A stretch of DNA of 64,000 bases from Candidatus Eiseniibacteriota bacterium (GCA_046327815.1 JAXLXR010000002.1:382422-446421); one strand, 5' to 3'. Positions 36,575 through 42,700 are shown, numbered from the stretch's first letter. Program-made: numbers and translations. The notes: a model not told the origin generated them from the letters alone.

Positions 36575-39019
36575 TCAGGCGGCTTCGGCCTCGCGCGACG
36601 AATCACCGGCCCCCGTCCAGCGGGCGAGCGCCTCGCGGAGCCGGGCTTCGTCCACCGGCTTCGACACGAAGTCGTCCATGCCCGCCTCGAGGCAGCGGTC
36701 GCGGTCGCCGGCCATGGCGTTCGCGGTGAGCGCCACGATCGGCGTGCGGCGGCCGTCGGGCTTCTCGAGACGGCGGATCTCCCGCGTCGCCTCGAACCCG
36801 TCCATCTCGGGCATCTGGCAGTCCATGAACACGACGTCGTAGGGCAGCTGGCGCCACAGGTCCACCGCCTCGCGCCCGTTCGCGCCGACGTCCACCCGGC
36901 AGCCGAGCTTCGTGAGCATGCGCACCGCGACCTTCTGGTTGATCGCGTTGTCCTCGGCCACGAGCACGCGCCAGCGTGGAGCGGACGGCGCCTCCGGCCC
37001 CGAGGGCGCACCGGTCGCCATGGCGCGGTCTTCGGCGAGCAGGTGCTGGGTCACGAGCGGGGCGCGCACGCCCTTCTCGCGGATGCCGAGCACGGTGGCG
37101 ATCGCTTCCTGGAGCAGCGACATGCGCAGCGGCTTCACGAGGTAGGCGTCGAAGCCCACGGCGAGGAACCGCTTGGCTTCGCCGCGCCGGCCGCTGCTCG
37201 TGAACATGATCATCGCGAGCTTGTCGTAGGCGCCGTCCTCGCGCAGCAGCTGGCCGAGGTGCTCGCCGTCCATGCCGGGCATGAGGTGGTCGATCAGCGC
37301 GAGCCGGATCGGGTCGCCTTCCTCGCGCGCGTGCCGCAGCGCCACGAGCGCGGCTTCGGCGTGCTCGACCGCCTGCGCGCGGAGCCCGAACGAATGCAGC
37401 TGTTCGACCAGCACGCGGCGGTTGACTTCGGTGTCGTCCACGATGAGCGCGCGCACGCCGTCGAGCGGCGAGCGCGGCAGCTTCTCGTGTGCGCCGGAGC
37501 CGTCGAGCGGGAGCCGGAGCGTGGCGGTGAACGTGGAACCCTTGCCGGCTTCGCTGGTGACGGCGATGTCGCCGCCCATGAGTTCGGCGAGCTGGCGCGC
37601 GATCGCGAGCCCCAGCCCGGTGCCGCCGAACTTGCGCGTGGTGCTGGTGTCCGCCTGTTGGAAGCGGTGGAACAGCGAAGGCAGCTTGTCGGCGGGAATG
37701 CCGATGCCGGTGTCCTGCACCTGGATGCGGACGAGCGCCTCGCCGGCCGTCACCTCGGGCGCGTCCACGGCGATCAGGACGTGGCCCTGCTCGGTGAACT
37801 TGATGGCGTTGCCGGCGAGGTTGAGCAGGATCTGGCGGATGCGCCCGGGATCGCCGACCAGTCGCTGGGGCGCGCCGGGCGCGTAGTGCACGACGAGCTC
37901 GACGCCCTTCTCGCTGGCGCGGGTGGCGAGCAGGTCGGCGGCTTCCTCGATCGCGACGCGGAGGTCGAAGGGCAGGGGCTCGATGGTGAGCTTGCCGGCC
38001 TCGATCTTCGAGAAGTCGAGGATGTCGTTGATGATCGAGAGCAGCGCTTCGGCGGACGCCTTGCTGGTCTCGGCGTAGTCGCGCTGTTCGGGGCCGAGCG
38101 GGGTGTCGAGCAGCAGCCCGAGCATGCCGAGCACGCCGTTCATGGGCGTGCGGATCTCGTGGCTCATCGTCGCGAGGAAGTCGCTCTTCGCACGGTTCGC
38201 CGACTCCGCCGCCTCCTTGGCCGAAACCAGGCTCTGGTTGACCTCGCGCAGGTCGCGCGTGCGCGACTCGACTTCGGCTTCCAGGTGCTCGCGGTGCTCG
38301 CGCAGCTCGGCATTGCGCTGCTGGATCTTGTCGAGCATGGCGTTGAAGCCCTGCACGAGGTCGCCGACCTCGTCGTGCTGGTCGGCCTGTGCGCGCACGG
38401 CGTAGTCGTGCCGCTCGATCACCGTGCGCGTCACGCCGGCGAGGCGCGAGATCGGCTCGGAGATGAAGCGCTGGACCCGCGACGCGATGGCGAGCGACAC
38501 GAGCAGCGTGCCCGCGAACAGTCCGGCGAGCAGCAGCATGTAGCTGCGGGCGCGCTCGTGCAGGTCCACGAGATCGCGCTGCAGGAGAATGGTGCCGATC
38601 GTCTGGCCGTCGAGTTCGATGGGCTGGACGAGCACGATCGCCTGGTCACCCAGCACCACGCCCGAAGGCTGGGCGTGCGGAGGCAGTGCCACGCGCGCGC
38701 CGCGGCGCACGTAGCGCGCGAACGGCGCCCCCTGTGCGTCGTAGATGCACGCGGCGGTCACGCGCACGTTGGCGCCCAGCGCCGCGAGCGCCTCCTCGGC
38801 CGAGGCGACGTCGTGGAACGACAGCGCGGCCGTCGAATTGGAGCCGATCACGTCGGCGAGCACGTCGAGATCGTGGCCGATCCGGTCGCGGAACGTGTGC
38901 TGGTCGAGCGCCTGCACGATCGTGAACGTGAGCAGCAGCGCGACCAGCGTCGTACCGACCATGGCGGTGACGAGCTTGCGGGACAGCGAAAGATCGCGGA
39001 ACGCGTGGAGGGGGCTCAT
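36575..39019 (-). CDS. hybrid sensor histidine kinase HK1 (TM, periplasmic domain, TM, HAMP, HisKA, HATPase_c, REC, REC)
   Basis: Two TM helices flank a roughly 140-aa periplasmic domain. HAMP. H-box [14 protein letters not shown]. ATPase G-boxes. Two receiver domains ([14 protein letters not shown]... and [14 protein letters not shown]...[14 protein letters not shown]). Confidence 0.85.
37491..38217. repeat. 727-bp near-identical duplicated segment (copy A) spanning the HisKA-HATPase core of HK1
   Basis: Aligns base-for-base, with no indels, to 40606-41332 at a constant offset of 3115 nt. Roughly 7 mismatches, all third-position synonymous. Flanks are unrelated. Confidence 0.9.
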
Positions 39020-39021
39020 GG

Positions 39022-39609: not shown

Positions 39610-39740
39610 CCCTGCTCCTCGAGGCGGATCGTCATGGGTGAACGCCGGCAGGAACCGGCGATGGCCAGTCTCGGCCGTGCCCGTCACTCCTTGAGTGAAC
39701 GCGCAGGGCGACGGGCGGGAGCCCGCGCAAATGGCGGCGG

Positions 39741-42700
39741 TCAAGCGGCCCGGCACGTGCCCTCCCCGGACGCCCAGTGTTCGAGCGCCTCGCGCAGTCG
39801 CGACTCCACCATCGGCTTCGCGATGAAGTCGTCCATGCCCACTCCGAGGCACTTCTCGCGATCGCCCAGCATGGCGTTCGCGGTGAGCGCCACGATCGGC
39901 GTGTGCCCGCCCGTGCCCGTCTCGAGCCGGCGGATCTCCCGCGTCGCGTCGTATCCGTCCATCTCGGGCATCTGGCAGTCCATGAACACGACGTCGTAGG
40001 GCAGCTGGCACCACAGCTGCACGGCTTCGCTTCCGTTCGCGGCCGCGTCCACGCGACAGCCGAGCTTCGTGAGCATGCGCACGGCGACCTTGAGGTTGAT
40101 GGCGTTGTCCTCGGCGACGAGCACCCGCCAGCGTGCGTGGTCCGCGGTTTCCGCGCCGGGTTCCTCGACCTGATGCGGTGCCGCGAGCGATCCCGGCGCC
40201 GAACCGGCGTCCGTGGGCCGGCAGGCCGCGAGCAGGTCGGCGAAGTGCACGGGGCGGGCGAGGTGCACGTCGAACGCCGCGCGAACGGCGTCGGTGTGCT
40301 GCTTCCAGCCGTCGCTGAGGAGCGCCAGTCGCGGCGCGGTTCCCGGGGCCGCCGCGCGCAGCGCGCCGGCGGCCGCGTGCGCGTCCTCCGACAGCGTGTG
40401 GTGATCCACCAGCACGGCGTGGAAGGCCGTCGCGCCGGCGGCGGCCGCGCGCAGCGCTTCGAGCGCCGGTTCGAGGCCGGCGACGCCGGTGGCGAGCGCG
40501 CCTTCGCTCGCGAGCGCCTCGACGAGCGCTCGCCGCTGCGCGTCGCAGTCCTCCACGACGAGCAGGCGCCGGCCGGCCAGTGTCGGTTCGTGCGGAACGG
40601 CGTCCGCGCCGGAGCCGTCGAGCGGGAGGCGGAGCGTGGCGGTGAACGTGGAACCCTTGCCGGCCTCGCTGGTGACGGCGATGTCGCCGCCCATGAGCTC
40701 GGCGAGCTGGCGCGCGATCGCGAGCCCCAGCCCGGTGCCGCCGAACTTGCGCGTCGTGCTGGTGTCCGCCTGCTGGAAGCGGTGGAACAGCGACGGCAGC
40801 TTGTCGGCGGGAATGCCGATGCCGGTGTCCTGCACCTGGATGCGGACGAGCGCCTCGCCGGCCGTCACCTCGGGCGCGTCCACGGCGATCAGGACGTGGC
40901 CCTGCTCGGTGAACTTGATGGCGTTGCCGGCGAGGTTGAGCAGGATCTGGCGGATGCGCCCGGGATCGCCGACCAGTCGCTGGGGCGCGCCGGGCGCGTA
41001 GTGCACGACGAGCTCGACGCCCTTCTCGCTGGCGCGGGTGGCGAGCAGGTCGGCGGCTTCCTCGATCGCGACGCGGAGATCGAAGGGCAGGGGCTCGATG
41101 GTGAGCTTGCCGGCCTCGATCTTCGAGAAGTCGAGGATGTCGTTGATGATCGAGAGCAGCGCTTCGGCGGACGCCTTGCTGGTCTCGGCGTAGTCGCGCT
41201 GTTCGGGGCCGAGCGGGGTGTCGAGCAGCAGCCCGAGCATGCCGAGCACGCCGTTCATGGGCGTGCGGATCTCGTGGCTCATCGTCGCGAGGAAGTCGCT
41301 CTTCGCACGGTTCGCCGACTCCGCCGCCTCCTGTGCGTGCCGGCGTTCGCGCTCGGCGGCGGCCCGCTCGGTGACGTCGCGGATGATCACGAGGATTTCG
41401 CCTTCGACCGTCGCGGCGAGCCGTGCTTCGAAGTCGCTCTCGCCGCCGTCCGGCAGGCAGGCCCGGTACTCGTGCAGCTGGACGCCGCCGTGCGCGCGCA
41501 CGAGTGCGAGCTTCTCGGCCATCGGCCGGGCGATCTCGGGCGGCAGCACGTCTTCCATGCACTTCCCGAGGAACTGGTCGGGCGGCAGGAGCAGCGCGTT
41601 CGCCGCGGGCGCGCGGTAGTCGAGGAAGCGGTTCTCCGAGTCCATCAGGAACATGAGGTCGGGCACGGCGTCGAGCAGGCCGCGCGCACGCGCCTCGGCG
41701 TGCTGCAGGCTGTCGCGGATCTGGCGCATGACGGTGACGTCCTGCTGCAGCAGCACGCGCCCGCCGTCGCGCGTGGCGCCCGGCACGAACCGCAGCCAGC
41801 GGCCGTCCACGTGCGCCTCGAACGCGTGTTCGCCGGCGAAGAAGTCCTGCGGCGCGCGTTCGCCGGGGGGCTCGGGAAGCGCCTCGAGCGCCGCGACGAG
41901 CGCGTCGCGATGCACGCCCGGCACGAGCACGCCGCGCAGCGCGGACCAGTGCTCGGCGTAACGGCGGTTGAACAGCACGAGCGTCCCCCGCGCGTCGAAC
42001 AGCGCGACCCCGGCCTCGAGCGATTCGATCGCGTCGTAGAGCTGGCCGCGCGTGCGCACGATCTCCTGCGTCTGTTCGTCCACGCGCGAGAGCAGGGCCG
42101 CGATCTCGCGTCCGAGCAGCCCGATCTCGTCGTCGGTCACGCGATCGAGCACCGGCATGGGGCGTCCCGCCTGCCGGTCCTGCAGCGCGCCCGCGAGGAC
42201 GCCGATCGGCCGGATCGCACGGCGTTCGATGAGCACCAGCAGCAGGGCGCCCAGCGCGGTGACGAGCGCGAAGCTGAACAGCCCGACGACGATCGCTTCG
42301 TGCACCATGGCCGCGTACGAGACCGGGTCGAACACCGTGACGAGCACGGTGGCGGCGACGAGTCGCCCGGAGTGATCGCCCGGTTCGGGGATCCACACGC
42401 GCCGCGCGAGGTGGAACCGGCCGCTGCGATCGCGCGACGCGCTCTCGAGCGCGCCGTCCCGCACGTCGTCCTCGATGCGCCGGACGTTGTCCACGTACGC
42501 GCCGACCCGGTCGAGCCGGCGATCCAGCCACGCACGCTTCGTGCTCGCGACCACGCGGGGCGGCACACCCGTGGTGACGACGATCTCCTCGACACCCCGC
42601 TCGGCGCCCATCGTGGCGACGAAGCGCTGGATCTCGTCCGCGGCGACGGCGGTGCGTGCGGCGTTCGCGGCCGCGGAGGCGAGACGCTCGCACTCGCGCG

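Follow-up and report, generated by a model that had tools for sequence, protein, structure and literature searches.

A tandem pair of hybrid histidine kinases

The DNA examined here, called the window below, is a stretch of 64,000 nucleotides from Candidatus Eiseniibacteriota bacterium (GCA_046327815.1, JAXLXR010000002.1:382422-446421). Two neighboring genes on its minus strand encode hybrid histidine kinases, HK1 and HK2, which are identical to the NCBI proteins MFN8586896.1 and MFN8586898.1 from a 507,945-bp contig of a Candidatus Eisenbacteria metagenome-assembled genome (MAG). The two genes have in common a 727-bp segment, encoding the DHp and CA domains, that differs between them only at synonymous sites. 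This near-identity probably results from a recent gene conversion, in which the core of HK1 was copied onto that of HK2.

A preliminary annotation made from the bare DNA, the sequence-only reading, had described two kinases on the same strand about 700 bp apart, HK1 with a periplasmic domain and HAMP, HK2 with a different periplasmic domain, HAMP and two PAS domains. The layout is correct, but the spacer is not empty and holds a gene for a DUF4154/YfiR-like protein. The domain descriptions agree with Pfam except for the HAMP of HK2, which received no Pfam call.

In both proteins, the HisKA and HATPase_c scores characteristic of a hybrid kinase are far above the Pfam cut-offs. The common core holds the H, N, G1, F and G2 boxes, including the GGTGLGL motif, and the phosphorylation residues DD/D/T/K are present in REC2. 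Since all the catalytic motifs lie intact in the shared core, HK1 and HK2 should both be active kinases. The best NCBIfam matches of the two proteins are BarA and TorS, with scores below the equivalog cut-offs, and neither is therefore orthologous to a named kinase. Residues 11-234 of HK1 also match the NCBIfam family NF053592 ('sensor histidine kinase, YfiR-like protein-associated') with 219.9 bits, the cut-off being 194; HK2 has no match to this family.

A repeat restricted to the catalytic core

When the window is compared with itself without gaps at an offset of 3115, repeat copies A and B (Table 1) align over 727 bases with 0 gaps and 7 mismatches, found in HK1 at 37514, 37550, 37583, 37640, 37658, 37679 and 37964. 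Every one of them occupies codon position 3 and is synonymous in both minus-strand frames, and the shared core corresponds to 242 identical residues ending in LPLDGSGA. The sequence-only reading had reported the ungapped alignment, roughly 7 third-position mismatches and the identical protein segments, and its observation is exact. An eighth difference, also synonymous, lies in the final shared codon (37490/40605). The distribution of the differences is uneven, 6 of the 7 being within the last 63 codons (37491-37680 versus 40606-40795; change-point P=0.013).

The edges of the repeat are abrupt, as had also been noticed. On the gene-sense 5' side, at 38218, the identity between HK1 and HK2 drops to ~25-50% within a few bases, and at 37490 it drops to ~50-70% across the linker. 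Both edges are the limits of alignable homology between the two genes. Identity is perfect over the 253 nt that reach the gene-sense 5' edge and amounts to 97-100% up to the 3' edge. The self-BLASTN recommended as a check, applied to the entire 64-kb window, returned only two repeats, namely the 727-bp core and an older repeat with 84% identity between the terminal receiver domains.

Table 1. Features of the HK1/HK2 region and related loci. Coordinates are those of the window, except for the related loci, which are numbered on their own contigs. pS and pN, proportions of differing synonymous and nonsynonymous sites.
Feature	Coordinates	Strand	Evidence or content
Repeat copy A, HK1 DHp+CA core (residues 269-510), inferred donor	37491..38217	-	self-alignment; diagnostic sites, trees
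Repeat copy B, HK2 DHp+CA core (residues 504-745), inferred recipient, native HK2-type core probably overwritten	40606..41332	-	self-alignment; L118 HK2 core 84%
HK1, 814-aa hybrid histidine kinase: CHASE8, HAMP, HisKA (DHp), HATPase_c (CA), REC1, REC2	36575..39019	-	translation of the open reading frame, Pfam; MFN8586896.1
HK2, 1032-aa hybrid histidine kinase: TM-periplasmic-TM sensor (TM, transmembrane segment), HAMP-like linker, PAS_7, PAS_4, HisKA, HATPase_c, degenerate REC1, REC2	39741..42839	-	translation of the open reading frame, Pfam; MFN8586898.1
HK1 terminal receiver REC2, older unconverted part of the duplication	36614..36978	-	84% to 39771-40135; REC2 tree groups by gene
HK2 terminal receiver REC2, HK2-type	39771..40135	-	self-comparison, REC2 tree
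HK2 first receiver-like domain, degenerate; abrupt gene-sense 3' tract edge	40230..40605	-	alignment; pN≈pS≈0.47 vs L035 HK2
DUF4154/YfiR-like periplasmic protein gene, 195 aa, signal-peptide-like N-terminus	39022..39609	-	Pfam PF13689 E=1.4e-35; same place in L035, L036, L117, L118
NMT1/SsuA-like periplasmic substrate-binding protein gene	42836..43909	-	Pfam NMT1 E=1.6e-23; NCBIfam SsuA_fam below cut-off; synteny conserved
Related locus L035 (GCA_016710095.1)	6161-12430		complete HK1+HK2 pair
Related locus L036	10001-16285		complete HK1+HK2 pair
Related locus L117			HK1 + HK2 tail
Related locus L118			HK2 + start of HK1
Related locus L037	1-3147		3.1-kb contig, doubtful quality

Related loci

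Contig look-ups and one metagenome scan revealed the same cluster in five other places, designated L035, L036, L037, L117 and L118 (Table 1). The gene order, which runs from a substrate-binding protein (SBP) gene through HK2, DUF4154, HK1 and a hypothetical gene to Peptidase_M32, recurs unchanged in L035 and L036, and in part in L117 and L118. A comparison of the sensor domains places the window beside L037 and L118, and L035 beside L036, with L117 further out. About six genomes carry the HK1/HK2 pair, and both cores are sequenced in only three of them. The GTDB species-representative genomes contain nothing close to the HK1 sensor (<=35% identity) and yielded no orthologous locus. In the more distant HK1 orthologs (L039, L042, L048 and others), the core is single, no second one lying nearby, and the tandem pair is therefore confined to a narrow clade.

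The short contig L037 is peculiar. It contains a hybrid open reading frame (ORF), in which an HK1-type HAMP, core and linker are followed by HK2-type REC1 and REC2 domains, and then DUF4154 and residues 1-184 of HK1. Its final ~100 nt consist of unrelated DNA, and no overlap exists between the two ends. This contig is either an assembly chimera formed through the shared core or the duplication product of an unequal crossing-over between cores. It was considered as independent evidence of identical cores in a sister lineage and was set aside on account of its unrelated tail and non-overlapping ends.

Evidence for gene conversion and its direction

Recent gene conversion had been proposed from the repeat itself, with the comparison of orthologous loci as a test, and this comparison supports it. 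The HK1 and HK2 cores of the same genome are 98.9% identical in the window, compared with 89.7% in L035 and 88.3% in L036, and their pS/pN values are 0.043/0 in the window and 0.23/0.06-0.08 in the two relatives. L118 is the nearest relative in which HK2 is unconverted, and its HK2 core has only 84% identity to the window cores; the pS between the orthologous cores of the window and L035 is 0.31-0.33. Within the tract, the paralogs of the window are closer to one another than orthologs are, for which identities of 84-92% and pS values of 0.18-0.40 are observed.

Could the identity have been preserved with no recombination at all, by purifying selection combined with an extreme codon bias (GC content at third codon positions, GC3, of ≈95%)? 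The tract GC3 is indeed 0.94-0.96 in all the copies, which caps synonymous divergence, and the clade shows almost no variation in the DHp at the protein level. The same codons have nevertheless diverged synonymously everywhere else, with pS values of 0.22-0.40 between orthologs and 0.23 between the paralogs of the relatives against 0.043 in the window, so that the identity must have a cause beyond selection or codon bias. In addition, 18% of the CA residues differ between the paralogs of the relatives and 0% in the window, and the position of the window HK2 core in the tree described below also speaks against simple conservation. The probability of such an explanation can be regarded as virtually nil.

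In a neighbor-joining tree of the cores, the two window copies form a pair with 100% bootstrap, which is joined, again with 100%, with L037 and the HK1 core of L117. In the protein tree, both window cores belong to the HK1 clade and are separate from the HK2 cores of L035, L036, P0030 and L118. The terminal receiver behaves differently: in the REC2 tree, that of the window HK2 groups with its HK2 orthologs (89.7% bootstrap), and the C-terminal tail is also of HK2 type in the alignment. The core and REC2 trees are hence incongruent for this particular gene. Diagnostic sites were defined as positions at which HK1 and HK2 are distinct, with three genomes for each gene. In both window copies, these sites are of HK1 type at 5 of 5 positions by the strict definition and 8 of 9 by the relaxed one. 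Taken together, the trees and the diagnostic sites designate HK1 as the donor and HK2 as the recipient. A mosaic tract, with a transfer from HK1 to HK2 in its 5' part and from HK2 to HK1 in its 3' part, had been contemplated on the basis of 24 diagnostic sites in two genomes; it was rejected after the addition of L117, L118 and L037, as HK1-type sites occur along the entire tract.

The homologous recipient predates the event, a diverged core being present at the same position in the HK2 genes of L035, L036 and L118. This observation bears on the proposal that HK2 was newly built in the window lineage by domain shuffling, through the recent insertion or duplication of an HK1 core into an unrelated PAS gene. 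Such a proposal is in line with the coincidence between the tract edges and domain boundaries, and shuffling did occur at some point, since the HK2 transmitter clade is nested in CHASE8-type, HK1-like kinases. The three HK2 orthologs have, however, the same architecture and the same neighbors as the window gene, and the REC1 and REC2 domains of the latter, downstream of the tract, are of HK2 type and old (84% to HK1). The shuffling consequently predates the clade, and what the recent event replaced was homologous sequence; a newly built HK2 is very improbable. The conversion itself is best dated after the split of the window lineage from L037 and L118.

The nature of the remaining differences is also informative. 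The probability that 7 random substitutions in the tract are all synonymous is 7.7e-5, and it is 0.019 if the differences were remnants of a divergence similar to that of L035. With close outgroups, about 5 derived changes since the conversion can be assigned to HK1 and about 3 to HK2. The seeming surplus of derived changes in HK1, 6:1 at first, was gone once these closer outgroups were used (5:3).

Two alternatives: a possible assembly artefact or recurrent conversion

The possibility of an assembly artefact had been raised by the sequence-only reading as well. In this case, the true HK2 core would be diverged, and an assembly or polishing error would have threaded the locus through an HK1-core sequence, for example the HK1 haplotype of a second strain; the 7 synonymous differences would then be HK1 polymorphisms between strains, which are likewise mostly synonymous. 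The sequence does come from a MAG and was found on one contig only, and the related short contig L037 is troubled at this very locus by its hybrid ORF and unrelated 100-nt tail. A chimeric path must nevertheless switch at exact k-mers shared inside the homology, which would leave native HK2 sequence near an edge, whereas the near-identity described above continues to both edges. Moreover, both ORFs are uninterrupted and in frame, the flanks of each are unique, and the two copies are resolved at 7-8 positions instead of being collapsed. Finally, the mis-mapping of reads would not homogenize paralogs that are 84-90% identical. An artefact is for these reasons quite improbable.

A different question is whether the window tract is only the latest of several episodes, in a recurrent and possibly selected concerted evolution of the transmitter across the clade. 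The pS between the paralogous cores of L035 and L036 (0.15-0.27) is lower than that between HK1 and the HK2 of L118 (0.31-0.40), and is similar to the distance between the L035 and L036 orthologs. These values give hints of an earlier homogenization in the common ancestor of L035 and L036. The clustering of the differences in the window would fit the partial replacement of an older tract by a more recent one, and L037 has an HK1-type core in the HK2 position. Against recurrence, the bootstrap support of the L035 and L036 cores is divided almost evenly between a grouping by lineage (50.6%) and by orthology (46.1%), L037 is demonstrably chimeric at one end, and the sample is the small set of pair-bearing genomes given above. 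Recurrent conversion is accordingly retained as a tentative possibility, held with much less confidence than a single recent event.

Proposed sequence of events

The favored explanation, to which a probability of about 0.8 can be given, is a recent, lineage-specific and non-reciprocal intrachromosomal recombination (interlocus gene conversion) between the tandem paralogous kinases, in the direction from HK1 to HK2. In an earlier step, the C-terminal half of HK1 would have been duplicated and fused to a different sensor, which would have produced the transmitter and receiver part of HK2. The clade of all the HK1 and HK2 cores is nested, in the protein tree, within single-copy CHASE8-type kinases, and this nesting implies that the duplication and fusion took place before the clade diversified. 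In the window lineage only, the DHp+CA core of HK1 would then have been copied onto the homologous HK2 core, 3.1 kb upstream, as a tract of at least 727 bp that stops, on either side, where usable homology runs out. Both copies would afterwards have gained synonymous changes only, indicating that both are functional and under purifying selection. Such independent evolution under selection argues in turn that the two copies are real and separately assembled. The constraint of a shared output would keep the DNA of the two genes similar enough for a RecA-type recombination and make the conversion harmless.

Several points weigh against this gene conversion. HK1 and HK2 are each present on one database contig, from the one assembly of the species; both proteins are in the homology database, whereas exact-protein look-ups gave no record of either. 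The tract reaches the very edge of the alignable homology on both sides, and over the last ~10 codons the HK2 of L118, the closest unconverted one, is very different, which leaves little homology for resolving the 3' junction. The concentration of the differences in the last 63 codons fits a single event followed by uniform mutation only imperfectly; two nested events, in which the 5' 540 nt of an older tract were overwritten later, or a later import, may account for it. Finally, the function of the two kinases in a shared pathway is deduced, and a hidden Markov model derived from Hpt tails of related kinases revealed no gene for an Hpt protein in the window.

Consequences for signaling specificity

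The sequence-only reading predicted that HK1 and HK2 would use identical surfaces for phosphotransfer and partner recognition. They do share their DHp sequence, but this similarity is not a consequence of the conversion. Indeed, the DHp domains of the two paralogs are already 96-97% identical in L035 and L036, and the identity is 92% between the window core and the HK2 of L118, whereas the CA domains are ~82% identical in the same comparisons. With a DHp conserved to this extent in the absence of conversion, the common output specificity predates the event. HK1 and HK2 appear never to have been insulated from each other at the helices that usually determine specificity. The terminal receivers of the two paralogs are likewise close. 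As the paralogs of every relative have almost the same DHp and almost the same terminal receiver, the two kinases probably feed one phosphorelay, on which their two inputs would converge. This convergence would make the cores interchangeable and their conversion harmless.

Heterodimers of HK1 and HK2, also suggested from the identity of the cores, are possible. The input to DHp helix 1 differs between the two proteins, arriving through a HAMP/coiled coil in HK1 and a PAS linker in HK2, and these differing helices could act against heterodimerization. It may even be that repeated and selectively favored conversion has kept the transmitter identical across the clade, allowing mixed dimers or one phosphorelay with exactly matched kinetics. 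This idea is rather unlikely; if true, it would reveal a natural design with two inputs and one shared, co-evolving output, contrary to the usual insulation of two-component paralogs.

A separate observation concerns the first receiver-like domain of HK2. In the window, DHHTLSEDA replaces DHLMPGxxG and the conserved Lys is changed to Arg, while these motifs are kept in the HK2 of L035, L036 and L118. This domain looks like a receiver decaying to a pseudo-receiver in the lineage of the window and L037.

Gene neighborhood

The DUF4154/YfiR-like gene fills the 721-bp spacer between HK1 and HK2, and its stop codon lies 2 nt ahead of the HK1 ATG. Upstream of HK2, the NMT1-like gene overlaps the start of the kinase gene by 4 nt, in a position that is kept in the relatives. 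The locus is therefore organized as two successive modules, each composed of an accessory protein and a kinase, NMT1-like with HK2 and YfiR-like with HK1. It is flanked on one side by PHO4 and cyclophilin genes, and on the other by a hypothetical gene and Peptidase_M32. Since the DUF4154 gene is translationally coupled to HK1, whose sensor belongs to the YfiR-associated family, HK1 is probably controlled by the release of a periplasmic repressor, by analogy with YfiNR. The NMT1-like protein is probably an accessory ligand-binding co-sensor of this kinase and not a transporter component. Scans of the locus and its surroundings for Rfam families, tRNAs, sigma-70-like promoters and intrinsic terminators were all negative.

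Directly downstream of HK1, a 291-aa ORF (35640-36515, minus strand) has no Pfam or NCBIfam match, and a gene of similar size without a recorded Pfam match occupies the same position in L035, L036 and L117. This ORF may belong to the same operon as HK1.

Further away, a stop-to-stop open frame on the plus strand (46424-48658) matches the REC2 receiver of HK1 (phmmer E=7.4e-12). At the corresponding place in L035 and L036, upstream of PhoU_div/PHO4 and on the strand opposite to the kinases, lies a gene for a protein resembling the ATPases of type II secretion or type IV pilus systems (MshEN + T2SSE), fused to a receiver. The product of the 46424-48658 frame could be an output of the phosphorelay.

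Comparison with known systems and significance

The tufA/tufB pair is the classic case of gene conversion between bacterial paralogs. In a prokaryote-wide survey of concerted evolution, 26 genes are listed, with 0 occurrences of kinases or two-component systems (PMC6053082). The HK1/HK2 pair shares with these bacterial cases the closer similarity of within-genome paralogs than of orthologs, synonymous sites included, together with sharp edges and a disagreement between the trees of the tract and of its flanks. It differs from them in that one module, DHp+CA, was homogenized between genes whose sensor halves are unrelated, and in its recent and lineage-specific character, the cases of the survey being very long-lasting (PMC6053082). 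The nearest analog is the mtrA-1/mtrA-2 tandem pair of methanogens (PMC4632066, as summarized in PMC6053082). There, too, tandem duplicates of which one is fused or shuffled are kept alike in their common part by conversion. The mtrA genes encode an archaeal methyltransferase subunit and are described as undergoing long-lasting, recurrent conversion, whereas for HK1 and HK2 there are only hints of recurrence. Literature searches for a transmitter-restricted conversion between histidine kinases returned no report, and the present case is a clean new example of a known process, the gene conversion of bacterial paralogs.

The sensing end of HK1 points to other systems. With its CHASE8-type domain, its HAMP and the adjacent, translationally coupled gene of the YfiR/HmsC-like (DUF4154) family, it resembles the YfiBNR and HmsCD-type modules (PMC3375315, PMC4887326). 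In contrast to YfiBNR, the output part of HK1 consists of HisKA, HATPase_c and REC domains, with no GGDEF diguanylate cyclase. No match to the YfiB/OmpA-like family was found among the ten neighboring ORFs scanned (29012-48241). The sensing end of HK1 thus resembles YfiNR, yet the locus is not a member of the YfiBNR group, and this likeness concerns what HK1 senses and not the repeat.

Duplicated two-component kinases are a textbook example of paralogs whose helices for dimerization and partner recognition diverge fast, so that cross-talk is avoided. Such paralogs usually diverge at their specificity residues toward insulation (PMC9208753, PMC10160972). The contacts between kinases through the DHp in the RetS-GacS pair (PMC8498467) raise the same question of interaction or output sharing as HK1 and HK2. 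In RetS-GacS, as in the insulated paralogs, the DHp domains are different and measurements of the interaction or insulation exist, while the DHp domains of HK1 and HK2 are identical by descent or conversion. The situation of HK1 and HK2 is the opposite of the usual one, with a near-identical DHp kept across the clade and a whole core re-homogenized in one lineage.

In practical terms, a direct repeat of 727 bp offers a substrate on which deletions or duplications can arise, and it makes the assembly of this locus from short reads hazardous. The wider impact of the finding is modest, the process being well known and the organism uncultured. The locus nevertheless provides a well-delimited natural case of probable gene conversion restricted to one module of a signaling protein. 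The HK1/HK2 pair is in addition a candidate node with two inputs and one output, of moderate interest for how signaling paralogs may stay un-insulated.

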